Assembly: GCA_944350275.1 (NCBI GenBank)
Contig: CALVOK010000043.1
Location: 24,411-88,410 of the forward strand
Direction: 5' to 3'
DNA from: an uncultured Clostridia bacterium
GTDB taxonomy: Bacteria; Bacillota; Clostridia; Christensenellales; UBA1242
DNA length: 64,000 bases
In this document: piece after piece, positions 455 to 37,459 of the stretch
Layout of the letters: every line of letters starts with the position of its first letter
How positions within the stretch are numbered: position 1 is the first letter of the stretch
Program-made: the position numbers and the translations under genes
Notes under the pieces: generated by a model
The model's input: the letters and a program-made list of their open reading frames with translations, nothing else
Told to the model about the DNA's origin: nothing
The model's database searches: none

Positions 455-1587
455 AGGAAGATTCCCCAGATAAACGTCATAAATGTAATCAGTCCCATAA
501 GCACGAAACAACATACCAAAAGCACTCTTGAGAGGTTGCTTGGCGGGTTTAGTTCGTCATCGCTGTACATTGAGTCGCTTATCTCATCAGCCACACCCTG
601 ACTTAGCGAGGTCTCATGAACGAGTTTTTGTAGGTCTTGACTTTCACTTCCAAGTCTAACCTCGTTGTTTGTAAGTTGAGCCACCTCTTCGAAGTAACTA
701 TCTCGAAGAACCTTTGTCATTATTGCATCTTGAAGAGAATTCATCTGTTTTAGCACACTTTCCTTGATGATACCTTTTATCAGCATTCTTGCAAGGATAA
801 AAAGCAGAGCGAAGAGTGTTACCATAAACAAAAAGGCAATTATAGGGTTATTTTCAAAGGATGCACCAACGAAGGTAAAAAATCCGTCGAACCTTAGGTT
901 GTTCATCCTTGAAAAAGACATGAATGTGCTTAAAAAATTGTTCATAAAGTGGATGATAATTGCAGGATATATGCAGTCGGCACGCATTGTCAAATACCCT
1001 AGGAGAAGTCCTATCAAGGTTGTGTAGAAAAACTGTTCAATATTCATATGCAACAGTCCAAAGAGCAGTGAGGAAATTATTATCGCCTTTTTCATACCAT
1101 AACTTGAAAGACCTTTGAGTAACATTCCCCTATGAGCAGTCTCCTCACATACGGCAGGAAAGATTGCAGTTGTCACAATGTTTACAAGGAAAAGCCACCA
1201 AGGATATGAGTCCATCGTGGAGCGGTCTGGGTTATAGCCAAGGTTTTCAAGTGCTAGGCTGAAAAATGAGGCTACAAAGACGTTGACAATGTATACAATA
1301 ATTCCAAGCAAGAAGGCATATAGCACTCCCTTCCATGATATTTTTTTATAGCCGTAGAATTTAAACACCTGTTTGGTCTTAGCCTTTTGCAAAGCCTTAA
1401 ACAAGAAGATTGATACCACAAACAGCATAACTTGGATGGATACATTTATAATGTACTTAGCCACGTCGCTTATCTGTCCGAAGAGATTGACCTCGTCTGA
1501 AAGTAAGATTTTCAATGTGACGAAAATTACCACAATGATTGAGTAACAAATAAGAGTATTTGTTGTAGTTCTGTTTTTTGTTTTCAT
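451..1587 (-). CDS. CPBP-family intramembrane glutamic endopeptidase (CAAX protease/Abi family), multi-TM, with a C-terminal soluble extension
   Basis: 378-aa ORF with the CPBP motifs EETAHRG (EExxxR), LLFGLLHMN (FxxxH) and HFMNNF, plus many hydrophobic helices. Confidence 0.8.
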   Translation of the reverse strand: MKTKNRTTTNTLICYSIIVVIFVTLKILLSDEVNLFGQISDVAKYIINVSIQVMLFVVSIFLFKALQKAKTKQVFKFYGYKKISWKGVLYAFLLGIIVYIVNVFVASFFSLALENLGYNPDRSTMDSYPWWLFLVNIVTTAIFPAVCEETAHRGMLLKGLSSYGMKKAIIISSLLFGLLHMNIEQFFYTTLIGLLLGYLTMRADCIYPAIIIHFMNNFLSTFMSFSRMNNLRFDGFFTFVGASFENNPIIAFLFMVTLFALLFILARMLIKGIIKESVLKQMNSLQDAIMTKVLRDSYFEEVAQLTNNEVRLGSESQDLQKLVHETSLSQGVADEISDSMYSDDELNPPSNLSRVLLVCCFVLMGLITFMTFIWGIFL

Positions 1588-1894
1588 AATGCTCCTTTTA
1601 ATTTATCTTGACGAATTGTTTTTTATATTGTCAAATAAAAATAATATATTTTGTCACCTATCAAATTATTTTTCAAAAATAATATCATAAAAATATCAAA
1701 CATAATATTATTTTATAAAACACATTTTTAAAATGACTAACAATATAATAATACAATATTTTTATGGTGTAAAGAGTTATTTTATTATTTCCCAAAAAAA
1801 TTTTTTGTCTAATTTAGCCGAATTTGTATCAATTTTGTCGTTTTATAAATTATTTTGTTACATTTTGTCGAATTGACTTTTTCCTGACGTCATT

Positions 1895-20811: not shown

Positions 20812-21159
20812 TTAAAAGCCTAATGAAATCAACAATGCCTTATTGACCTCTCTCATTTTCTCTGGCGAAAGAGTTGTAACTTTCTCTTGCAGACGTCTTT
20901 TGTCGAGTGTTCTTATCTGCTCAAGCAGAGCAACAGAGTTCTTGGGAAGATTATATTTTTCAGCAGGCAGTTCTATATGCGTGGGCAGTTTCGCCTTGCC
21001 AAGTTGACTTGTTATTGCAGAGACTATCACCGTCGGCGAATACTTGTTTCCAACATCATTTTGAATTATAAGCACAGGACGAACGCCACCCTGTTCACTA
21101 CCAACAACAGGGCTAAGGTCTGCGTAGTAAATTTCACCTCTTTTTATCTGTCCTTCCAT
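20812..21159 (-). CDS. mazF: MazF/PemK-family endoribonuclease toxin (EndoA/NdoA-like)
   Basis: 115 aa, [48 protein letters not shown]...PTHIEL...[16 protein letters not shown], closely matching the Bacillus EndoA pattern and including the conserved Arg and Thr/Ser. Confidence 0.9.
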
Positions 21160-21379
21160 GTCCTTCCTTATTCCAAAAGTCTATCAAGTCGGCTTTTTCG
21201 AGTGGCAAAAGTTCCTCTTTGGTCTCTTGGTAGACCTCATCAAACACATTTTGCTTATCTACTTTCATATTATGCAACTTGTCACCAAAATTTGCATATA
21301 TGGTGGCAGAAACAAAGTCATCTTTTGTCAATTTTTGTTTCTTTTTTAACTCTCGCTTAAGCCTAAATTTATCAAACAT
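21134..21379 (-). CDS. Putative cognate antitoxin of MazF (not obviously RHH/AbrB type)
   Basis: 81-aa ORF directly upstream that overlaps the mazF start by 26 nt. The C-terminal half is acidic and ends in ...[12 protein letters not shown] (an acidic segment with aromatic residues, MazE-tail-like). Confidence 0.5.
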
Positions 21380-24248: not shown

Positions 24249-24971
24249 CTAATATGTTATCTTAAAATAATCAAGTTTTTTCTTGTACTGGTCTTGTGCG
24301 GTAAGGCAGGTGTCAAGAAGATTCCCCCGCTCTTCCTCCCACATTTCTAGACCTCGGTAATAGTAATATTTCAAATCATCATCTATTATAAAAGGAACAA
24401 TGCTATTTTTAAGGCACTCTTTAAACATTATAAGTCTACCCACTCTGCCATTCCCATCTTGAAATGGATGTATGCACTCAAATTTTTGATGAAATGCAAC
24501 AATATCTTCAAAATTTTTGTGTGTCTTTTCGTTGTATTCATTCAATAATTTTATCATTTCGTCACTTACATTTTCAGGTGCTACTGTCTCCTTACCGCCA
24601 ATTGTGTTTGGTATTTTTTTATATTCTCCGACGTTGAACCACTCTTTTTTCTCGTCGCTGGTATTGCTTTTAAGCAATTTATGAAGATTTTTTATCATAT
24701 TAGTGCTGAGCGGTTTCTCAGCATTATCAATGCAATAGTCAAAGCACTTAAAATGATTTATTGTTTCGGTGATATCGTCTACATTGATAGGTTCGCTCGC
24801 TCCTATTGTGTTAGTCTCGTAAATATAACGAGTTTGCTCTTCTGTCAGTTTGCTACCCTCAATATGATTGGAGTTATAGGCAAATGATATCTGTGTAAAC
24901 TGATAAATTCCGCCTTTTAATTGCGACGTTTTCTCCTCTCTCAACCTTTTCAATATCTTGTTTCCTGCCAC
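24249..24971 (-). CDS. Fic-family protein with the canonical active site and an N-terminal inhibitory-helix motif
   Basis: HPFQDGNGRVGRL (HxFx[D/E]GNGRxxR). The upstream SNHIEG fits the (S/T)xxxE(G/N) auto-inhibition motif. 240 aa from a GTG start. Confidence 0.85.
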   Translation of the reverse strand: MAGNKILKRLREEKTSQLKGGIYQFTQISFAYNSNHIEGSKLTEEQTRYIYETNTIGASEPINVDDITETINHFKCFDYCIDNAEKPLSTNMIKNLHKLLKSNTSDEKKEWFNVGEYKKIPNTIGGKETVAPENVSDEMIKLLNEYNEKTHKNFEDIVAFHQKFECIHPFQDGNGRVGRLIMFKECLKNSIVPFIIDDDLKYYYYRGLEMWEEERGNLLDTCLTAQDQYKKKLDYFKITY

Positions 24972-27191: not shown

Positions 27192-27484
27192 ATTTCCCTC
27201 CTGTTATATATATACAATAACATATTTTTGTGTGAAAAACAATCTATTTTCGACATTTTTTTTGTTTTTTTAATAATATTATTATTTTTTTATATAATAT
27301 TCACATATTTATATCTATTTTGGTTAGTTGTTTAATTAAAATTTAATATTATCTGTAAATAAAAGTTATTTAATTTATCATAAATAATTTATTTAATTTT
27401 TTAATGGTAACTTTTTAAATTATTTCACATTTCGTTTGACTTATTTTTTCGCTGTCTCTATAATAAAAAGTGGAGGAAAAATTT

Positions 27485-28153
27485 ATGAGTTGTCCTATTA
27501 ATATGAAAGGATTTGGACCATCACCTATTCCAGAAGAGGCTGAGTGGGTTCAATTAAAAGACATCAAACAAATATCTGGATTTTCACATGGTTGCGGAAA
27601 ATGTGCGCCACAACAGGGCACCTGCAAACTTACTTTAAATGTTAAAAATGGCATTATCAAAGAGGCTCTTGTTGAGACAATTGGTTGCTCGGGTATGACG
27701 CATTCGGCGGCTATGGCAGCGGAAATTCTCCCTGGCAAAACACTGCTTGAGGCACTCAATACCGACCTCGTGTGTGACGCTATCAATGACGCAATGAAAA
27801 ATATCTTCCTGCAACTTGTATATGGCAGAAGTCAGTCGGCGTTCTCAGAAAACGGTCTCGCTGTGGGCTCGGCTATTGAGGACCTGGGCAAAACTCTCTC
27901 TAGCAATGTGGGTACCGTCTACTCGCAAGAGGGAATTGGCACTCGCTATCTTAATTTGGCTGAGGGTTACATAACCAAAGAGGGTCTTGACGAAAATGGT
28001 GAGATTATCGGCTATGAATATGTTGCAATCGGCTCGCTTATGAAGTCGCTACGTGAAGGAGTGGACTCAAAAGAGGCTATCAAAAAGGCAACTAAGACCT
28101 ATGGTAGATTTGCCGAGGCAAAAACTGTTATTGACCCAAGGAGGATAGACTGA
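27485..28153 (+). CDS. NifU/IscU-like Cys-containing scaffold-type protein, partner of the GGGtGRT protein
   Basis: The ATG at 27485 is preferred (RBS ggagg at 27472). Cys motifs GCGKCAPQQGTC and GCSGMTHSA. TGATG stop/start overlap (shared TG) with the next gene. Confidence 0.6.
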   Translation: MSCPINMKGFGPSPIPEEAEWVQLKDIKQISGFSHGCGKCAPQQGTCKLTLNVKNGIIKEALVETIGCSGMTHSAAMAAEILPGKTLLEALNTDLVCDAINDAMKNIFLQLVYGRSQSAFSENGLAVGSAIEDLGKTLSSNVGTVYSQEGIGTRYLNLAEGYITKEGLDENGEIIGYEYVAIGSLMKSLREGVDSKEAIKKATKTYGRFAEAKTVIDPRRID

Positions 28154-29139
28154 TGGATTTAACTTTAAAACAGACAGGTATTGAAGAGACCTTACAAAAA
28201 TATAACATTAAAAGTCTTGACGAGGCAAAGAAAATTTGTCTTGACGGTGGCATAAATGTCGAGGAAATTGTCAAAGGAATTCAACCTATTTGCTTTGATA
28301 ACGCGGTAAAAGCATATGAACTTGGTGTTGCAATCGCACTCGTCACAAACACTAACAGTGCAAGTGAGGTCGCACTTAAACTGGGCGAGGGATTGCAGGC
28401 TTACTGCAAAAAAGGCTCTGTCGCTGATGAACGTAAAATCGGACTTGGACATGGCAGACTTGGAAGTATGCTCCTAAGCGAGAACACAAAGAGTTTTTGT
28501 TTTCTTGCAGGACATGAGAGTTTTGCCGCTGCTGAGGGTGCTATTGGTATTGTTACCTCAGCAAATAAGGTGAGAAAAACTCCCCTCAACGTCATTTTGA
28601 ATGGTCTTGGTAAAGACGCAGCCTATATTATCTCGCGTATAAATGGTTTCACATTTGTCTCTACAAGTTACGACCACAAGACAGGCGAACTTAAAATACT
28701 CTCAGAAAAACCTTTTTCAAATGGCGAAAGAGCAAAGGTGAAAGTCTACGGCGCTTATGACGTGCCTGAGGGCGTGGCTATTATGCAACACGAAAAAGTT
28801 GACGTGTCAATAACAGGCAACTCCACAAACCCTATGCGTTTCCAGCATCCAGTCGCTGGCATCTACAAAAAATGGTGCTACGAAAATGGTAGAAAATATT
28901 TCTCGGTTGCCTCTGGCGGTGGCACAGGTAGAACACTCCACCCTGATAATATGGGATGTGGTCCTGCAAGTTATGGACTAACTGACACTATGGGACGAAT
29001 GCACTGTGACGCTCAGTTTGCAGGCTCATCTTCAGTGCCTGCTCACGTTGAAATGATGGGCTTTATTGGCATGGGAAATAATCCAATAGTTGGCGCAACA
29101 GTTGCCCTCTCCGTCGCAGTTGAAACAAGAAAAAGATAA
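28153..29139 (+). CDS. GGGtGRT-family protein (function unknown)
   Basis: 328 aa containing the family-defining signature ASGGGTGRTLHPDNMG. Confidence 0.75.
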   Translation: MDLTLKQTGIEETLQKYNIKSLDEAKKICLDGGINVEEIVKGIQPICFDNAVKAYELGVAIALVTNTNSASEVALKLGEGLQAYCKKGSVADERKIGLGHGRLGSMLLSENTKSFCFLAGHESFAAAEGAIGIVTSANKVRKTPLNVILNGLGKDAAYIISRINGFTFVSTSYDHKTGELKILSEKPFSNGERAKVKVYGAYDVPEGVAIMQHEKVDVSITGNSTNPMRFQHPVAGIYKKWCYENGRKYFSVASGGGTGRTLHPDNMGCGPASYGLTDTMGRMHCDAQFAGSSSVPAHVEMMGFIGMGNNPIVGATVALSVAVETRKR

Positions 29140-29156
29140 TTAAAAACATTAATTTT

Positions 29157-29204
29157 AAAAAAGCATATTGATTTTAGTATATTTCAATATGCTTTTATTT
29201 TTTG
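29157..29204. terminator. Bidirectional Rho-independent terminator between the GGGtGRT gene (+) and the 514-aa gene (-)
   Basis: 11-bp stem aagcatattga/tcaatatgctt (29161-29171/29184-29194), flanked by an A-run and a T-run. Confidence 0.75.
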
Positions 29205-29266: not shown

Positions 29267-30811
29267 TTATTCGTTCTCGTCCTCATAGTCGTCGTAGATA
29301 TCTGTTTTTTCAAGGTCAGTGTCGTCGTACATATCGGTTTTTTCAAGGTCAATGTCATCTTCAATGGTATCTTGCTGTTCAATGTTGTTATTTTTGAATT
29401 TTGCCATCAAAAAGCCCTTTGAACCATAGAGAATTATCTTTTTAAAGTTGCCCTCATATGAAAAACCTAACTCGTTAAAGTGGTACTCTATAAGTTTGCT
29501 GAACTTGTCGAGATACTCCTCTTTTGTCTTTTTGTCAGTGATATTTTGCTTTCTAAAATAGGCATTCTCACTGTTACAAATATATTTTAAAAGGTGGATA
29601 TAGTAATTTGGATGATTTTTTAACATATAATTTTGATAAAAATTTGTCAAATCTTTGTCGTATTTTAATATTCCGTCTTTATTTCTAGTCTTTACGGTAA
29701 AGAGAGAAAAGTCGTATTTATCCTGAACATACTCACCCTTGTCATTCCTTTGACCTTGCTTTAAGGTTATGATTGTGTTCTTTTTTGACTTCGAGTTGGA
29801 ATAATAGTCGCCGTACTTCAACTGCTCTCTCTTCTTGCCGTCTTTTGCCTCTAACTCTTTGAAGTACTCATTTAATATTTGAACAAGTTCTCTCTCTGAC
29901 GGCTTTTTCTCTGGATAAATTAGTGCGAGTCCGTCAAGTGTTCTTGTGTTTTCTATTGCGTTTTCATAGGATATGCTTGTCTTAAAGCCACCGCTCGTTG
30001 CCTTTTCCTCAAAAAATGCATAGGATGAATTGACTTTTTCTTTCAATTTTTGGAGCATATTTTCATCAATATGTCCTCTGTACTCAAATATTCTCATTGG
30101 CGAAATGATTTTAACCTTGCTTGTGACGGCATAGAGGTCGCGGTCAGTCTTAAAGTGAATATCAAATCCGCCGTCGGCATTAGTTGTGCAAGGAACGCAG
30201 ACATAGTTTGACTTGTCATTGTCATATCCTATCACGACAACACTACGTTTTCCGCCATACTCGGCATCAACCACAGGGTTCAGGTCTGCAGAAAAGACGT
30301 CCCCTATCTTAATCTCTCGCTCAGGGCGGTAGTATGGGTTGTCAACCTTTCTAAACATGGTATGATTACCACATCGGACATAGTTTAAGGCACTTGCAAG
30401 CGTGAATTTAGAGTCAATTTTAAGAAAATCTTGTATGCCCTCAATTCCCTCGTTATACATGGCATTTATAATTGTAAATTTTAATTTCTTAGAGAGTTTT
30501 ACCGCTGTATTGTAAATCTCATCTTTTTGTCTGCCAATTTCAGAGTACTTCATGCTGATGTAGTCTAGGTAGTATTTTTGCAGTGCCTGGATAATTCTGT
30601 TATTGTTATTTAGCACCTCAATATGATTATTGTTGAAACTTATTAGCACTTTGTCATGAGTCTCTGGATTAAACAGGGTTAGACGGGTAAAATTTATGTC
30701 GTCGGTATTCTCATTGGTATATGTTATCACCTTGTAATCGTTGTCAAGAACCATACGAACAATATTTAAAAGTTCCTCATAAGTCAAATTTATCTTCATA
30801 CTTTTCTCCAT
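29267..30811 (-). CDS. Large protein with an embedded MazF/PemK-like domain, unknown N- and C-terminal domains and an acidic repeat tail
   Basis: aa ~166-262 read EIKIGDVFSADLNPVVDAEYGGKRSVVVIGYDNDKSNYVCVPCTTN...VKIISPMRIFEYRG. This parallels the canonical MazF at 20812 ([25 protein letters not shown]...AITSQ). The tail is DDIDLEKTDMYDDTDLEKTDIYDDYEDENE. The start could instead be the ATG at 30799. Confidence 0.7.
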   Translation of the reverse strand: MEKSMKINLTYEELLNIVRMVLDNDYKVITYTNENTDDINFTRLTLFNPETHDKVLISFNNNHIEVLNNNNRIIQALQKYYLDYISMKYSEIGRQKDEIYNTAVKLSKKLKFTIINAMYNEGIEGIQDFLKIDSKFTLASALNYVRCGNHTMFRKVDNPYYRPEREIKIGDVFSADLNPVVDAEYGGKRSVVVIGYDNDKSNYVCVPCTTNADGGFDIHFKTDRDLYAVTSKVKIISPMRIFEYRGHIDENMLQKLKEKVNSSYAFFEEKATSGGFKTSISYENAIENTRTLDGLALIYPEKKPSERELVQILNEYFKELEAKDGKKREQLKYGDYYSNSKSKKNTIITLKQGQRNDKGEYVQDKYDFSLFTVKTRNKDGILKYDKDLTNFYQNYMLKNHPNYYIHLLKYICNSENAYFRKQNITDKKTKEEYLDKFSKLIEYHFNELGFSYEGNFKKIILYGSKGFLMAKFKNNNIEQQDTIEDDIDLEKTDMYDDTDLEKTDIYDDYEDENE

Positions 30812-30897
30812 ATTCTAATTATAATTCGCAAAATCTTTTTTGTCAATACCTGACTAAATAAATTGACCTTTCATTTAAAAAATATTATAATGTACCT

Positions 30898-31557
30898 ATG
30901 ATTCAATTGCGAAGAAGTTGGTACGAGTTACTAAAAGATGAATTTGACAAAGATTACTTCAAAAAATTACAGTTATTTTTAGATGATGAGTATAAAAATT
31001 ATCAGGTTTACCCTAGCCAGCAAAATATTTTTAATGCACTCAATCATCTGCCTTTTGATAAAATTAAGGTGGTTATAATTGGTCAGGACCCCTATCATGA
31101 GCCTGGACAGGCACAAGGTCTTGCCTTTTCTGTACCTGAAAATGTGCAAATTCCGCCATCACTAGTCAATATTTTTAAAGAAATTGAGGATGACCTCAAT
31201 GTAAAGTGTCTAAAAAATGGCAATCTGGAACGTTGGGCAAATCAAGGCATACTTCTTCTCAACACAGTTTTAACAGTTAGGCGAGGTCAGGCAAACTCAC
31301 ACAAGGATAAAGGTTGGGAGACTCTGACAAGAAAAATTATCCAACTTGTAGGTCAAAGACAAAAACCTGCAGTGTTTATGCTTTGGGGGTCTTATGCACA
31401 GAGTTTTGCTCCGCTAATTGCACCTCAGCACCTAGTTTTAAAGGCACCTCATCCAAGTCCTCTCTCGGCATACCGTGGGTTCTTTGGTTGCAAACACTTC
31501 TCAAAATGCAATGAATTTTTGCGTTCTCATAATGAAGAGCCTATTGATTGGAGATAA
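30898..31557 (+). CDS. ung: Uracil-DNA glycosylase (family 1)
   Basis: GQDPYH water-activating loop, LLLNTVLTV and HPSPLSA motifs. 219 aa. Confidence 0.93.
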   Translation: MIQLRRSWYELLKDEFDKDYFKKLQLFLDDEYKNYQVYPSQQNIFNALNHLPFDKIKVVIIGQDPYHEPGQAQGLAFSVPENVQIPPSLVNIFKEIEDDLNVKCLKNGNLERWANQGILLLNTVLTVRRGQANSHKDKGWETLTRKIIQLVGQRQKPAVFMLWGSYAQSFAPLIAPQHLVLKAPHPSPLSAYRGFFGCKHFSKCNEFLRSHNEEPIDWR

Positions 31558-31913: not shown

Positions 31914-33029
31914 TTACTCAGCATCTGCTGTCGTGTCGTCGTCAGAATTCTTCAAACTGTCAATAGCCTCTTGAAGATTCTTGATATCCTCTTTGATTTC
32001 GGCATTTTGAGAGGTAAGCAAGTTGAATATCTTTTCAAGCAGAGGGTATCTCTCAGAGTTCTTCTGCATAACTTCTTCGCAGTGTTGAACAGATAGTTTA
32101 AGTCCCTCAAGCAAGTCAAGGTCCTCTTCAAGTTTCTTTGCCTTCTCTTCGTCAATATCAGCATAGTTGTTTACACCATAGAGTACAACCTTTTGTTTTG
32201 CAACAAGTGCCTCTTTTCTGCGAAGTTTCTTCTCATCACTCTCGAGAGTTCTCTTCACACGTCTAAGTGGAATATACTCTTTCTTGCACTTACGAAGTTC
32301 TTTCTCGTTCTCTTTAAGTCTCTCTTGCTCCTCAGCAAGTTTTCTCTCAAGTTCTTCAAGGCTCATGTTAGATGTGAGTGCGTTTACATCACCCTTATTC
32401 TCTTCATATGTTGTTGTAGTCTCATCATCTGAAGGCTCTGTAACCTCTTCGGTTTCTTCGCTCTCTTGTTCCTCTTGAGTCTCAGGCTCTTCATTTTCTT
32501 CCTCAGTTAAATCAACAGCCTCTTCTTCCTCTGTTTGTTCTTCCTCTTCTTGTTCCTGAGCCTGCATTCTTGCAAGTCTTTCCATAAGTTCTTGTCGACG
32601 TTGACGAATAAACTCAGTTGCGTCGTCTGATGGAGCATCCTCAGACTCTTGTTCTTCTTGCTCCTCTGTTTCTTGTGGTTGTTCTTCAACTGTTGGAAGT
32701 TCTTCTTCCTCTTCCTCTTCTTCCACTTCCTCAACCTTTGTAGCGTCTGGGTTGTAGTCCTCAACTACTGCACCATTGTAGAGGATAGTTGCAACTTCTG
32801 GGTCGTTTTTTAATTCCTCTTTGAGTTTTTCTTTCTTCTCAAGAGCATTGATACGTTCCTCAAGTGCCTTGTTTTGCTCTGACTGTCTGTCAGAAATAGT
32901 CTTTTCATCTTTCTTTTTATGAGAAATGCTCATAAATAGGTCGCCCATGAAATATAAGAGGAAACCTCCCGCTACAATAATTCCAAGAACAACAACCACG
33001 GTAATAATTACTGAACTCATAATTTTCAC
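31914..33029 (-). CDS. N-terminally anchored, extremely Glu-rich coiled-coil protein (unknown function)
   Basis: 371 aa with a TM helix at the N-terminus followed by long E/Q/K-rich heptad-like sequence. The start is the GTG at 33029 or the ATG at 33020. Confidence 0.6.
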   Translation of the reverse strand: MKIMSSVIITVVVVLGIIVAGGFLLYFMGDLFMSISHKKKDEKTISDRQSEQNKALEERINALEKKEKLKEELKNDPEVATILYNGAVVEDYNPDATKVEEVEEEEEEEELPTVEEQPQETEEQEEQESEDAPSDDATEFIRQRRQELMERLARMQAQEQEEEEQTEEEEAVDLTEEENEEPETQEEQESEETEEVTEPSDDETTTTYEENKGDVNALTSNMSLEELERKLAEEQERLKENEKELRKCKKEYIPLRRVKRTLESDEKKLRRKEALVAKQKVVLYGVNNYADIDEEKAKKLEEDLDLLEGLKLSVQHCEEVMQKNSERYPLLEKIFNLLTSQNAEIKEDIKNLQEAIDSLKNSDDDTTADAE

Positions 33030-33089: not shown

Positions 33090-33480
33090 TGGTGGAGACG
33101 GCGGGAGTTGAACCCGCTTCCGAAAAACTTGTTCAAAACTTTTCTACACGTTTAGTTTATGTTATTTTCTCGCTGATAAACCTAACATAAACAAAATTTT
33201 TATCAGCCTAGTCTATTTTTTATAAGTAACCTTAGACAGAGTAACTTACAGAGCACCTAATTTAAACCCTTGTATTCAATTTGGTGAGATTGAATAAGAG
33301 TCATCCGAAAGATTGTTCAGACTTAAGATTTGTTCACTTAGGCAGCACAAGCAAGGCTTGCATTGTCAAGACGAACTACATTATTTTTTGCGTTTATTTT
33401 TGTTGCCTACTTTTAGGTGCTAGGCACACCACGTGCTTTACATTTTGACCAATGCTCCCCGTCGAAACCATGACGCCCCC
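33090..33480 (-). ncRNA. ssrA: tmRNA (SsrA)
   Basis: 5' GGGGGCGTCATGGTTTCGACGGGG... and 3' ...GGAAGCGGGTTCAACTCCCGCCGTCTCCACCA (tRNA-Ala-like acceptor/T-arm). Tag ORF GCA AAA AAT AAT GTA GTT CGT CTT GAC AAT GCA AGC CTT GCT TGT GCT GCC TAA. It lies immediately downstream of smpB. Confidence 0.9.
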
Positions 33481-34291: not shown

Positions 34292-34774
34292 TTATCTCTC
34301 CAAGAATTCAGCAAGTTTAGTGTCCTCTTCCTGCTGTTTTTCAAATCTCTTTTGCTCTCTTGCCTGTGCCAAGTCGTATGCTCTAGATCTTCTCTTTATT
34401 TTTGCCTGAATTTTATCTCTGTATCTATCTTCTTTCCTCTGCATTGACATAAATTGTCTGCCCTTCAATTTATGTGTGTGATAGAGCCTATATATTAAAG
34501 AACCATCATACTCAAGTCTTGTGACATTTAATTTTAAATCACCTGCCCAGTCCTTATAACCTATAAACTGATTAGCAATACTGTCCATAGATGAAAGTTT
34601 AACATCATATTTTTCTAAATCGCTAAAAGAATATACAGAACCGTTATTCGTTCTAAATAGAATATGAGACCTGTTATCTTTATCTCTTACAACGAAAATA
34701 TCCTTCATCTCAAAGGTGTGTTCTCTTACCTTCTTTACCTTTTCTTTGTGCCTCTTTTTCTCTTCTTTATCCAT
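34292..34774 (-). CDS. Hypothetical highly charged protein (160 aa)
   Basis: ORF with lysine-rich N- and C-termini and a central beta-rich segment. No recognisable motif. Confidence 0.5.
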   Translation of the reverse strand: MDKEEKKRHKEKVKKVREHTFEMKDIFVVRDKDNRSHILFRTNNGSVYSFSDLEKYDVKLSSMDSIANQFIGYKDWAGDLKLNVTRLEYDGSLIYRLYHTHKLKGRQFMSMQRKEDRYRDKIQAKIKRRSRAYDLAQAREQKRFEKQQEEDTKLAEFLER

Positions 34775-35055
34775 ATTTTCTCCTCTCTATGCCTATTATA
34801 TAACATAATCCACATTCTGTCAATACAGATTATTATTTTTTTCGTGCCAAAACTAGTTTTGCTCTGCTTAAATTCCCACAAAAGTATTTAAAAACATAAT
34901 TATTTATGAAAATAAAACCTAATCGTTTTACAAGTTGATTATTATAGTAATAGTTATATTAATATACTAATTTTTGAAATCTTATAAATATGCTATTGTT
35001 TTATTATTGTGATAAAAATTTATAATCTTGCAAATGTATTTTAGTAACCAAAAAA

Positions 35056-37149
35056 TTATTTAATAAATCTTATAAATTCAAAGTCAATTTTTCGTGTGTA
35101 GATGTTTGAGGCGGTTAGTTTTACAAGCACTTTTTCGCCGACAGCAAATGTCAGTCTTTGACCTTTGAGTTTAAGTTGTTTTTCAAAGAGCAAGAATCCG
35201 CTGTCATTTAAATCCTCAACCTTTATCATACCCTCGACGGTGTTTTCAAGTTCGACAAAAATGCCAAAGTTTGTCACTGATGAGATAACACCCTCAAACT
35301 GCTGTCCTATCTTATCTCGCATGAGGTAGGCTTTCCAGAGGTCGTCGACATCCCTCTCACACTTGTCAGCATTTTTCTCGGTTAGACTTGACTGCTCGCC
35401 TGCTTCAAAGGTGAAGTTTTCAAGTTCCTCGCGTCTTTCCCCTTTTATGCCTTTGTGGAGATTCTCCTTGATAATTCTATGAATTGTCAGGTCGGGATAA
35501 CGTCTTATTGGTGAGGTAAAATGGCAATAATATTTCAGTGCAAGACCAAAGTGTCCAAGACACTGATTGGTATATCTCGCCTTTTGCATAGAACGCAAAA
35601 TCACCTTGTTAACCGTCTCGGTATAGGCTTGTCCGTCGCAGAGTTTGATTAGATTTTGGTAGTACTCAGGTGTTATCTCCTCTGGCAGAGATGGAGTTTT
35701 TATCCCAAGCCCTTTCATATATTCAAGCACACTTTCAAGTTTCTCTTTTCGTGGACTTTCATGCACGCGGTATAAAAATGGTATATCATTATCACAATAC
35801 TCCTTTGCTACCGTCTGATTTGCTAGCACCATAAAATCCTCAATCAATCTATGTGCGTCATTTCGTTCACGTTTAGCAAAGTCTACCGCCATGCCATCTT
35901 GGTCAAAAATAAACTGCACCTCGGGTATCTCAAAGTCAAGGCTACCCTCGTTTTTCTTCCTTTCTTGAATTTTCTTTGACACCTCATGCATAAGCAGGAG
36001 TTGTTCTTTTACACTCTCCGTTTTCTCGTCCGCCTTTTCTCCGCAAAGTACCTTGTAGACATTAGTATAATTGAGTCTTGCCCTGCTTTTTATTACACTT
36101 TCACAAATCTTGTGAGAGATTACCCTTGCGTCTTTGTCAAGTGTCATTATGCAGGAAAGAGTTAGTCTCTCCACATTCTCATTGAGCGAGCAAATACCAT
36201 TTGAGAGTTCTTTCGGAAGCATTGGCAAAACTGAGGTTGGAAAATAAACACTTGTGCCACGATTGAAAGCCTCCTCGTCAAGCAAGGTATCATATTTAAC
36301 ATACTCGCCAACATCGGCAATATGTACACCTAAAATATAGCCATTTTCCGTCTTTTCAATGGATACCGCGTCATCAAGGTCCTTTGCATCCTCTCCGTCA
36401 ATGGTGAAAGTTATCTCACCCGTCAGGTCAAGTCTGCCTTTTTTCTGTGCAGGCTTAACCTCTTGAGAAATCTTCCTTGCCTCGTCAAGCACCTCCTGAG
36501 GAAAGGTCTCATAAAGTCCATGGTCGCGGATAATGGCAAGTTCGCAGGCTTTGACATCGTCGCTCTTGCCAAGAACCTCATCAACCACACCGCACAAGGT
36601 GGTACTATGACGAGAAAGACGCACAACAACTCGCTCATCCTCTTTTGCACTCAGTCCGCCTCTAATCAACCTAATTTTATATGGAATGTGGTTGTTATCA
36701 GGAGTGACGAAGAGGTTTCCGCCCACCTTTTCCACCACACCTGCAAGTTTGGTGACAGGTTTTACAATCTTGACAATCTGACCATCACTGCCCTCATCTG
36801 TCTGCGAGAGCACCTTGACAATAACTTTGTCTCCATCTATTGCTCCCATTTGGCAGTTCCCAGCAATAAAGATATCCTCCTCTTGCGAGTTTTCAATCTC
36901 CACAAAGCCATAGCCACGCGTGTTTCCTATAAAAACTCCTCTTTTGTATTCGTCATTAGGAACGGTTACATACTTTCCCTTTTTGACTTCAAAAATCTTG
37001 CCTTCCTGTTCCAGTTTCTTAAATGCCTTTTTTACCTCATTGATATCAAGGCTATAGGTATTTGCTAAAAAATAAAAAAGATTGTCTGTCTTTTTTAGTG
37101 ACAAACTATCTCTTTCTAAAAATTCTAAGATTTTGTCTTTTACCTGCAT
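35056..37149 (-). CDS. rnr: Ribonuclease R
   Basis: 697 aa with cold-shock/OB N-terminal region, RNB catalytic domain (DGEDAKDLDDAVS, HFGLA..YCHFTSPIRRYPDL) and a C-terminal S1 domain. Conserved secG-rnr-smpB-ssrA order. Confidence 0.93.
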   Translation of the reverse strand: MQVKDKILEFLERDSLSLKKTDNLFYFLANTYSLDINEVKKAFKKLEQEGKIFEVKKGKYVTVPNDEYKRGVFIGNTRGYGFVEIENSQEEDIFIAGNCQMGAIDGDKVIVKVLSQTDEGSDGQIVKIVKPVTKLAGVVEKVGGNLFVTPDNNHIPYKIRLIRGGLSAKEDERVVVRLSRHSTTLCGVVDEVLGKSDDVKACELAIIRDHGLYETFPQEVLDEARKISQEVKPAQKKGRLDLTGEITFTIDGEDAKDLDDAVSIEKTENGYILGVHIADVGEYVKYDTLLDEEAFNRGTSVYFPTSVLPMLPKELSNGICSLNENVERLTLSCIMTLDKDARVISHKICESVIKSRARLNYTNVYKVLCGEKADEKTESVKEQLLLMHEVSKKIQERKKNEGSLDFEIPEVQFIFDQDGMAVDFAKRERNDAHRLIEDFMVLANQTVAKEYCDNDIPFLYRVHESPRKEKLESVLEYMKGLGIKTPSLPEEITPEYYQNLIKLCDGQAYTETVNKVILRSMQKARYTNQCLGHFGLALKYYCHFTSPIRRYPDLTIHRIIKENLHKGIKGERREELENFTFEAGEQSSLTEKNADKCERDVDDLWKAYLMRDKIGQQFEGVISSVTNFGIFVELENTVEGMIKVEDLNDSGFLLFEKQLKLKGQRLTFAVGEKVLVKLTASNIYTRKIDFEFIRFIK

Positions 37150-37150
37150 C

Positions 37151-37459
37151 CTATTCGCTTGCCCCTGTACTTAAAAATATTTCGGTAACGAAGAACAAAA
37201 TCAAGCATATAAAGATTATAATAGCCATTGCAATTGTTATGCGTTTTAGCACACTATCACGCGAGGCGCCCTTGTTTTTAGAATAATAACTCTCCTGACT
37301 TGCACCAGTAAAGGCATCTAGACTCTTTGATGAATCATTCGCCTGCATAAGTGTGGTGACAATCATCACTATTGCACAGGCAATAATAAGTCCAAATAAA
37401 ACATATCTAATAATAGGCAAAGCATCCTGCCAAAAATAACTTAGTGTACCCTCAGTCAT
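37151..37459 (-). CDS. secG: Preprotein translocase subunit SecG (long form)
   Basis: Two TM helices separated by a LMQ...S.S....G.S...Y.K.K loop resembling Bacillota SecG. Sits immediately upstream of rnr, as in Bacillus. Confidence 0.65.
   Translation of the reverse strand: MTEGTLSYFWQDALPIIRYVLFGLIIACAIVMIVTTLMQANDSSKSLDAFTGASQESYYSKNKGASRDSVLKRITIAMAIIIFICLILFFVTEIFLSTGASE

Follow-up and report, generated by a model that had tools for sequence, protein, structure and literature searches.

In a stretch of 64,000 nucleotides from the genome of an uncultured Clostridia bacterium (GTDB lineage Bacteria; Bacillota; Clostridia; Christensenellales; UBA1242), i.e. positions 24,411 to 88,410 of the forward strand of contig CALVOK010000043.1 (GenBank assembly GCA_944350275.1; hereafter the window, to which coordinates refer unless stated otherwise), an open reading frame (ORF) of 514 codons is present on the minus strand at positions 29267..30811. 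The gene encodes a chromosomally fixed, monocistronic, three-domain protein of the MazF family, in which the toxin domain is embedded between two orphan domains and the chain ends in a disordered, acidic tail. MazF is among the best studied toxins and is known essentially as a protein of ~110 amino acids (aa) that is controlled by a separate MazE antitoxin. An initial annotation, made from the sequence alone, had viewed the window protein as possibly a toxin that is fused to its own means of neutralisation, and a fused, self-restrained toxin-antitoxin, i.e. a natural MazF 'zymogen', is still the best reading, to which we attach a probability of roughly 45%. The single chain, the intact-looking catalytic residues, the lack of an antitoxin gene and the acidic tail on which the idea was built were all recovered in our analysis; the docking of the tail onto the toxin domain was not.

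The MazF/PemK-like domain that had been placed at about residues 166-262 is borne out by Pfam, phmmer and Foldseek alike. Residues 170-262 match the Pfam profile PF02452 (PemK/MazF toxin) over profile positions 3-107 of 109, with E=6.1e-9 and 36.5 bits at a curated gathering cut-off of 23.1 bits, and the same residues are covered by the NCBIfam MazF model and by PHROG 1936 ('MazF-like growth inhibitor'). In a phmmer search of the PDB the domain retrieved EndoA/YdcE of B. subtilis and E. coli MazF (E about 1e-5), and the 50 PDB matches listed by Foldseek for the full AlphaFold2 model all come from MazF (TM-score on target 0.52-0.67, with E down to 6.5e-5 and probability 1.0), with the caveat that the MazF region is modelled with only moderate confidence and is the least confident folded part of the model. 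The entries 4MDX, 1NE8 and 5CR2 are the best matches in both sequence and fold. The colinear alignment by eye with the MazF encoded 9 kb away in the window (20812..21159) was reproduced by BLASTP, which finds 31% identity over 104 aa (E=1e-8). PF02452 is also matched by all the other full-length members of the family that were scanned (P0008, P0009, P0012, P0013 and P0020, and P0001-P0006 according to precomputed annotation). On the basis of profile, catalytic residues and fold, the embedded domain is a genuine member of the PF02452 MazF/PemK family.

The catalytic pair of B. subtilis MazF (BsMazF) has been established experimentally as Arg25 and Thr48 (R29 and T52 in E. coli MazF), and Ser is tolerated in place of the catalytic Thr in M. 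tuberculosis MazF7 (PMC7354611). In the phmmer alignment the residues R189, T209 and E184 of the window protein are placed opposite R25, T48 and E20, respectively, in agreement with the earlier claim that the catalytic Arg and Thr are kept. A survey of the homologues gave the same picture: in all 14 full-length members, which are only 21-57% identical overall, the Arg is invariant and position 209 is occupied by Thr or Ser, so that a loss of the pair in most homologues was not seen. E184 (the equivalent of E. coli E24, i.e. the Glu of the SEQGG loop), G186 and G187 are likewise invariant, as are I167, P179, V181, P207, V229, S237 and R240 within the domain. Since the MazF domain is in addition the most conserved and slowest-evolving region of the protein (35-76% identity to the window protein), the pattern is the one to be expected of an enzyme and not of a scaffold, and the MazF catalytic centre is apparently intact. 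The residues opposite the RNA-recognition segment of BsMazF differ in the alignment, and the specificity of the embedded domain may therefore differ from that of BsMazF.

The gene is monocistronic and has its own promoter and terminator (Table 1). The promoter is of the sigma-70 type and is arranged back-to-back with that of the divergently transcribed ung (30898..31557), the gap of 86 bp between the two genes being filled by these two promoters only; an operator-like inverted repeat in this spacer proved to be simply the two divergent -35 boxes. The sequence TTGACA-17-TATAAT followed by a GGAG leader is also found upstream of the orthologues. The downstream spacer of 127 bp contains the hairpin terminator (-12.8 kcal/mol, z=-3.3, followed by U6), which was overlooked by the consensus scan because its loop exceeds 8 nt, and which can serve both the MazF-domain gene and the convergent gene of the GGGtGRT family beyond it. 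In neither of the two spacers, nor at the orthologous loci, did we find a small ORF that could encode an antitoxin, and Rfam detected no RNA element in the spacers flanking the gene. Outside aa 170-262 nothing in the protein itself matches Pfam or NCBIfam, hence neither an AbrB/SpoVT nor a ribbon-helix-helix (RHH) antitoxin domain is present. The adjacent, co-transcribed small antitoxin gene that defines a canonical bicistronic mazEF operon is thus absent, and what is found is the architecture of a fused toxin-antitoxin, i.e. a toxin together with extra conserved domains in one monocistronic gene and no separate antitoxin.

The ORF, the lack of a small upstream antitoxin ORF and the monocistronic position between the terminator and ung had all been described correctly at the outset; the length of the product needs amendment. 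The first ATG comes 7 nt after the end of the -10 box. The GGAG site lies behind that ATG, within what the mechanical listing counts as the first 'codons', and ahead of Met5 with its ATG at 30799. The layout AGGAGAAA-N-ATG is conserved at five orthologous loci (L001, L002, L005, L006 and L009), and the protein starts with MKINL or MNINL in five of the six close homologues, while P0001 has the same MEKKM extension as the window protein. Given the position of the -10 box, the GGAG before Met5 and the homologue starts, the real start is probably Met5, which would result in a protein of 510 aa and a leader of ~12 nt; the first four listed codons (MEKS, 30799..30811) are then probably part of the 5' leader.

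The strongly acidic C-terminal tail comprises 38 residues, among which are 19 D/E, 2 K/R and 3 aromatic residues (net charge -17), and it is a family-wide feature: each of the 14 full-length members ends in an acidic tail of 7-38 residues with a net charge of -3 to -17 and almost without basic residues. The very end is conserved, the tail terminating in E-x-E in 13/14 members with E512 invariant and E514 nearly so, and the remainder is unalignable. The emphasis that had been placed on the tail gains support in so far as the acidic tail ending in E-x-E is concerned; this support does not extend to the emphasised tandem repeat, which is seen in none of the homologues and is specific to this genome. 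In both AlphaFold2 models the predicted local distance difference test score (pLDDT) of the tail is <50, with block means of about 26-45, i.e. the tail is predicted to be disordered. A conserved end motif on a variable, disordered and acidic tether would be expected if a short motif, held by the tether, were to bind to a pocket, either in its own protein or in a partner.

The regions that flank the MazF domain had been described as being of unknown fold, and indeed they lack any family or solved-fold match by profile, PDB or Foldseek searches. In the case of the N domain AlphaFold2 predicts a helix, a four-stranded meander and a second helix; no match was found in Pfam, none in the PDB by hidden Markov model (HMM) and none by Foldseek at E<1e-2, and a profile search with this domain returned nothing beyond the family. 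The linker has block-mean pLDDT values of about 27-59 (27-45 over aa 101-160) and carries, 16 residues before the MazF domain, a GNH motif whose His150 (codon 30362..30364) is invariant in 14/14 full-length members. The C domain, when remodelled alone from an alignment of 19 sequences, yielded a confident model (mean pLDDT 84, predicted TM-score (pTM) 0.77, construct residues 10-195 lying in blocks with a mean pLDDT of 83-97), for which the best Foldseek match in the PDB has E=0.36 and TM <0.2; matches to Pfam or NCBIfam and significant matches to PDB profiles were absent as well. It is the least conserved region (16-49% identity to the window protein). In a search of BFVD with the full model, PemK-like proteins were among the significant matches, and beyond them only weak, low-TM, unrelated ones appeared. 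The N and C domains are thus two orphan domains with no recognisable relatives, and they are not an internal duplication of one another (hhalign probability 0.1%). LigT-type 2H phosphoesterases act on 2',3'-cyclic phosphate ends as made by MazF, and a weak HMM match over 45 residues, which links the C domain with 2FYH and 1VDX (E=0.02-0.07), was considered as a sign of a degenerate enzyme of this type; that reading fails, as the aligned positions lack the His and Thr of the HxT motifs and Foldseek finds no 2H protein with the confident model.

Comparison of the orthologous loci shows that the C domain is an autonomous module, able to exist without MazF. At locus L013 only a 181-aa C-domain protein (1056..1601 of that locus) is encoded between ung and the GGGtGRT gene, with no MazF; at four other loci (L009-L012; 6001..6937 in L009) a 187-aa C-domain gene (P0017) comes first and a second gene begins 1 nt later; at L007 the full-length gene is followed by a Shine-Dalgarno site and an extra stand-alone C-domain gene; and at L014-17 a C-domain gene is found alone in an unrelated context. 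All four L009-L012 contigs end within 372 nt of the start of the second gene, the product of which, cut to 124 aa by the contig end, starts a MazF-like motif, IGKCYW..D..P...FSGIRPCFLAG; a homology search with this fragment and a scan of metagenomes for a complete gene downstream of P0017 found nothing. A MazF part without a C-domain ORF was seen at none of the loci examined. An antitoxin without its toxin does no harm, a toxin without its antitoxin does, and the observation that the C domain is found alone and MazF never without it is, with the caveat of small numbers, the asymmetry that an antitoxin hypothesis predicts. In favour of the same reading we also count the different in-frame stops of the alleles L008 and L021 (see below), both of which fall between the MazF core and the C domain.

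The site downstream of the MazF-domain gene is also a small insertion hotspot. Between this gene and the GGGtGRT gene, an orphan of 315 aa is inserted in L003 (2539..3486), an orphan of 225 aa in L022 (2026..2703) and a 690-aa Fe-hydrogenase/rubrerythrin fusion in L023 (7712..9784). We considered whether the genes inserted in L003 and L022 might be extra C domains, for which hhalign shows no relation.

The mechanism that we propose is as follows. The MazF core (aa 166-262) would be a working RNase. Its expression is driven by a consensus promoter, with no antitoxin as a partner, and the core would as a consequence have to be kept inactive in cis by the accessory parts of the same chain. The likeliest inhibitor would be the C-terminal module, i.e. 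the orphan C domain together with the disordered acidic E-x-E tail. Inhibition would be lifted by a trigger, candidates for which are the clipping or degradation of the tail and the binding of a ligand or a foreign protein by the fast-evolving C domain, and release would lead to RNA cleavage and growth arrest. All the functional steps in this scheme, from RNase activity, toxicity and cis-inhibition to the identity of the inhibitory part and of the trigger, are ones that we infer. A more explicit version, which we put forward tentatively and consider rather doubtful, holds that the protein is a domesticated MazF 'zymogen' at a fixed site in which the E-x-E end plugs the RNase site as a tethered pseudo-substrate, in mimicry of MazE, and the C domain senses a phage protein, a stress or a protease and then frees the tail; sensor and effector would then be united in one CapRel-like protein, with MazF as its basis and two folds not seen before. 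Still more speculatively, the gene might be functionally linked to ung, with which it is invariably paired head-to-head.

The distribution of the family was established by a word-indexed search of 5.8 billion proteins, which recovered only six full-length homologues (36-57% identity), and by an exhaustive HMM search of 1.84 billion representatives with the C-domain profile, which recovered 16 proteins. These include more distant members of 463-540 aa with the N-MazF-C architecture (as judged by Pfam and alignment) and five stand-alone C-domain proteins of 181-214 aa (P0011 and P0016-P0019). In total ~20 proteins belong to the family, out of the 1.8-5.8 billion that were searched. All come from one clade of uncultured Clostridia; among the GTDB species representatives the gene is present in two only, both of them metagenome-assembled genomes labelled 'uncultured Clostridia bacterium'. 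The exact 514-aa protein sits in a 90%-identity cluster of which the other 31 members are 368-aa proteins; these are no truncated alleles but unrelated proteins brought together by a clustering artefact, which could mislead automated annotation.

In every member for which flanking DNA was obtained the gene occupies a single chromosomal position, where it faces ung head-to-head and stands upstream of the GGGtGRT/NifU-like pair and tyrS, with secG-rnr-smpB-(ssrA)-acidic protein as the wider neighbourhood. The fixed ung locus holds even for members that are only 23-28% identical to the window protein, which implies that the genes are orthologous and vertically inherited, not mobile. A phage or plasmid origin can be rejected in so far as the family was not found in the viral contigs of IMG/VR and the N and C domains have no match in the INPHARED phage or PLSDB plasmid collections. 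PADLOC-DB gave no match either, and the neighbours are housekeeping genes, i.e. there is no defence-island setting. Between species the gene is 29-62% identical versus 91-96% for GGGtGRT, 89-96% for the NifU-like protein and 81-93% for Ung; a membrane protein encoded nearby shows a similar rate of divergence (52-63%). The ratio of non-synonymous to synonymous divergence (pN/pS) was obtained from a single closely related pair, L006 and L019, which shows 13 non-synonymous and 22 synonymous differences (pN/pS 0.14), from which it follows that the gene is functional and constrained, albeit much less so than its enzyme neighbours. The view that this is a hypervariable gene under diversifying selection is countered by this ratio and by the neighbouring membrane protein with its similar rate. 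The gene appears to be fast-evolving but constrained, under purifying selection.

Several observations weigh against a self-restrained toxin. The tail is left disordered and undocked in the AlphaFold2 predictions, where it should be kept in mind that these are models of a monomer and that the MazF groove is formed by a dimer. The full-length model has a pTM of 0.40, and its domains are not packed against one another with confidence. A regulatory role could equally fall to the N domain or to the linker with its invariant His150. The MazF-like fragment of L009 matches MazF by hhalign with a local E=7e-4 and a probability of 27%, as measured on a truncated fragment, which is no more than suggestive. 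In L008 (SRR28167521; 5890..5960) and L021 (SRR32209729; 3980..4060), which are 99% identical alleles of a distant member from different samples, different in-frame TAA codons occur, one derived from CAA and the other from GAA, 21 codons apart and both between the MazF core and the C domain; these nonsense alleles could be independent pseudogenes, or the stops could represent a tolerated split into two genes. The fixed housekeeping locus and the lack of matches in PADLOC and in the phage, plasmid and viral collections are unlike what is found for mobile toxin-antitoxin or defence genes.

Many of the same observations are compatible with the main alternative, a possible, though to our judgement not probable one, namely that the protein is a domesticated, non-toxic housekeeping or regulatory RNase, constitutively active and narrowly targeted by its N and C domains to a specific RNA (for example a processing site in an rRNA, a tRNA or an mRNA). 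Such an enzyme would need no antitoxin, and its tail could serve partner binding or solubility, for example. The strictly vertical inheritance at a single core locus (secG-rnr-smpB-ssrA-ung-gene-GGGtGRT-tyrS in every member examined), the strong promoter of a constitutive type, the purifying selection, a GC content of the gene (0.359) close to that of the genome (0.357), the failure to find the family in mobile DNA or PADLOC and the altered residues at the RNA-recognition segment, which may entail another specificity, are all in line with it. It fits less well with the dispensability of the gene in relatives, among which L013 has no more than a C-domain gene at this locus and L008 and L021 carry nonsense codons, with a rate of evolution far above that of the neighbouring enzymes (29-62% versus 81-96% identity), and with the very small size of the clade at ~20 sequences in 1.8 billion representatives; moreover, it leaves the persistence of the C domain alone unexplained.

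It is improbable that the protein is a pseudo-toxin, in which the MazF fold serves as an RNA- or protein-binding scaffold without catalysis and the real activity resides in the orphan N or C domain. The two flanking domains do make up ~75% of the protein and are conserved as folds, the invariant positions outside the MazF domain in the 14 members include H150 as well as G449, Y452 and G454 in the C domain (besides E512 in the tail), and the MazF region is, as noted, modelled less confidently than the other folded parts. Nevertheless, a scaffold would hardly be expected to retain the catalytic Arg, Thr/Ser and Glu in 14 proteins down to 21% identity, nor to be the slowest-evolving region of its protein.

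Even less credible is an orphan toxin that is neutralised in trans, by an unlinked factor or by the product of a mazEF-like pair 9 kb away in the window (20812..21379, minus strand, downstream of acpS). The pair consists of the gene for a canonical MazF (115 aa, Pfam E=7e-37) and, upstream of it and overlapping with it, an 81-aa ORF (21134..21379) that has a good Shine-Dalgarno site and no Pfam or NCBIfam match and presumably encodes a divergent MazE-like antitoxin. The C-terminus of the 81-aa product resembles the tail of the MazF-domain protein (QDTIEDDIDLEKTDMYDDYEDE), with Smith-Waterman scores of 40-43 that are reached by 0.6-4% of composition-preserving shuffles; the resemblance is weak and short, it came to our attention post hoc, and the repeat that is specific to this genome is part of it. 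Furthermore, the two MazF domains share only 31% identity, and neutralisation in trans would leave the conserved accessory domains and the tail unexplained. That separate genes were joined into this ORF by misassembly or by read-through can be dismissed, since ENA, Logan and GTDB assemblies, independent of one another, contain 14 distinct proteins with the same uninterrupted N-MazF-C architecture, the exact 514-aa protein has been recorded independently, and nothing was found in favour of an artefact, even though L008 and L021 do have in-frame stops at a domain boundary.

Table 1. Features of the MazF-domain gene and its product, in window coordinates
Feature	Position	Strand	Basis
Promoter: TTGACA, 17-nt spacer, TATAAT; 12/12 consensus positions	30818..30846	-	Consensus scan; orthologue comparison
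Shine-Dalgarno site GGAG, followed after 6 nt by the ATG of Met5	30806..30809	-	Read from the sequence
Probable true coding sequence, 510 aa + stop (mechanical ORF reaches 30811)	29267..30799	-	Promoter and Shine-Dalgarno position; homologue starts
N-terminal domain, aa 5-100	30512..30799	-	AlphaFold2 model, pLDDT 71-89
Helical linker, aa 101-165, motif VRCGNH	30317..30511	-	Alignment; poorly modelled
MazF/PemK endoribonuclease domain, aa 166-262	30026..30316	-	Pfam, NCBIfam, phmmer, Foldseek, 14-member alignment, BLASTP
Inter-domain segment, aa 263-299; site of stop codons in two related alleles	29915..30025	-	Model; allele comparison
C-terminal domain, aa 300-476, alpha/beta	29384..29914	-	Own AlphaFold2 model; stand-alone homologues
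Disordered acidic tail, aa 477-514, ends EDENE	29270..29383	-	Composition, alignment, both models
In-frame tandem duplication, 33-bp unit, 2.1 copies, protein repeat D-x-DLEKTD-x-YDD	29288..29356	-	Repeat detection
Hairpin terminator, 13-bp stem, 12-nt loop, flanking A run and T run	29153..29196	.	Folding

With respect to the neighbouring genes, the convergent GGGtGRT protein (PF14057) and the preceding 227-aa NifU-like protein are encoded as an overlapping pair (27470..29139, plus strand), and at 89-96% pairwise identity among the closer genomes and 79-96% identity to the window across all loci these are the most conserved genes of the neighbourhood. On the ung side a 371-aa protein (31914..33029, minus strand) with an N-terminal hydrophobic helix and long Glu-rich, coiled-coil-like stretches has no family assignment; a counterpart, conserved at 51-81%, stands between ssrA and ung in the majority of the relatives whose DNA on that side could be recovered. 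Beyond it lies the gene for transfer-messenger RNA (tmRNA; 33090..33480, minus strand; tag AKNNVVRLDNASLACAA), together with smpB, rnr (RNase R) and secG at 34292..37459. The tmRNA machinery rescues ribosomes that are stalled on cleaved mRNAs, and in all relatives these genes are located about 2-6 kb from the MazF-domain gene; this proximity is probably ordinary Firmicutes synteny. In the otherwise near-identical genomes of L006 and L019 the synonymous divergence (pS) of ung is 0.65 versus 0.05-0.08 for its neighbours, which suggests that the ung allele was replaced by recombination right beside the MazF-domain gene. Elsewhere in the window (24249..24971, minus strand) a 240-aa protein with a Fic motif (HPFQDGNGRVGR) is encoded, the domain being of the toxin or the AMPylase type.

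How the window protein relates to known systems can best be judged from the classical MazF/EndoA proteins (B. subtilis YdcE and E. coli MazF), with which it has in common a homologous domain of ~100 residues as well as the Arg and Thr of the catalytic pair and the SEQGG-loop Glu. It differs from them in its length (~510 aa versus ~115 aa), with the domain being internal and flanked by ~165 aa and ~250 aa of unknown folds, in the absence of a mazE gene, in being monocistronic and fixed at one chromosomal locus, and in its RNA-recognition residues. In the literature that we searched, and within that literature only, no description of a natural multidomain or fused MazF was found, nor a survey of such fusions for MazF. 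Natural single-chain toxin-antitoxins as such are well established for toxSAS (CapRel), zeta (EzeT), HicA and RelE toxins (PMC10865869, PMC11980606). While the single-chain toxin is thus a known kind, the new element would be that it is built on MazF with two orphan domains.

Among these single-chain systems CapRel(SJ46), a phage sensor, likewise combines a toxin domain with a C-terminal domain in one chain, and in both proteins the accessory domain evolves faster than the enzymatic domain. CapRel's C-terminal domain is both the cis-antitoxin and the sensor of the trigger (PMC10865869); purely by analogy, a sensor role might be imagined for the C domain described here. However, CapRel is a toxSAS that acts by tRNA pyrophosphorylation, whereas RNA cleavage is predicted for the window protein, and CapRel is found in prophage and defence contexts, whereas the present family has a housekeeping neighbourhood and was not found in phage collections. 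EzeT, a zeta-toxin kinase of E. coli whose N-terminal antitoxin domain acts in cis, belongs to another toxin family, and its antitoxin part is recognisably homologous to epsilon antitoxins, whereas neither flanking domain of the window protein resembles MazE, AbrB or RHH antitoxins. The fused HicAB/HicBA proteins (classes 11-13) and RelE-YiaG, known from the surveys by Gerdes, are natural monocistronic fusions of RNase toxins and antitoxins as well, and have been proposed to be autoinhibited (PMC10865869, PMC11980606); there, the partner is a known cognate antitoxin, often with a DNA-binding domain, whereas here the partners are orphan domains. A precedent for a role of the tail is an engineered one: in a 'zymoxin' the acidic C-terminal peptide of MazE, tethered C-terminally to MazF via a cleavable linker, silences MazF in cis until the linker is cut (PMC3281143). 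The same logic is proposed here for a natural acidic tail, with the difference that the engineered protein is artificial and carries a bona fide MazE fragment directly after MazF, whereas in the window protein a folded domain of ~180 aa intervenes.

If the protein is indeed a fused, self-restrained toxin-antitoxin, it would extend the concept of CapRel, EzeT and HicAB to MazF and would give the engineered MazF zymogens, which are activated by a protease, a counterpart in nature. It would also bring in two domains without recognisable relatives, for which a role as inhibitor or sensor could be dissected by simple truncations. If, on the other hand, the protein is a constitutive, specialised RNase, the implication is more modest, namely a new accessory-domain architecture for the MazF fold. 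As a toxin-derived gene that is inherited vertically at a housekeeping locus and not on mobile DNA, it bears on the question whether such genes are to be viewed as selfish elements, as defence systems or as domesticated regulators.

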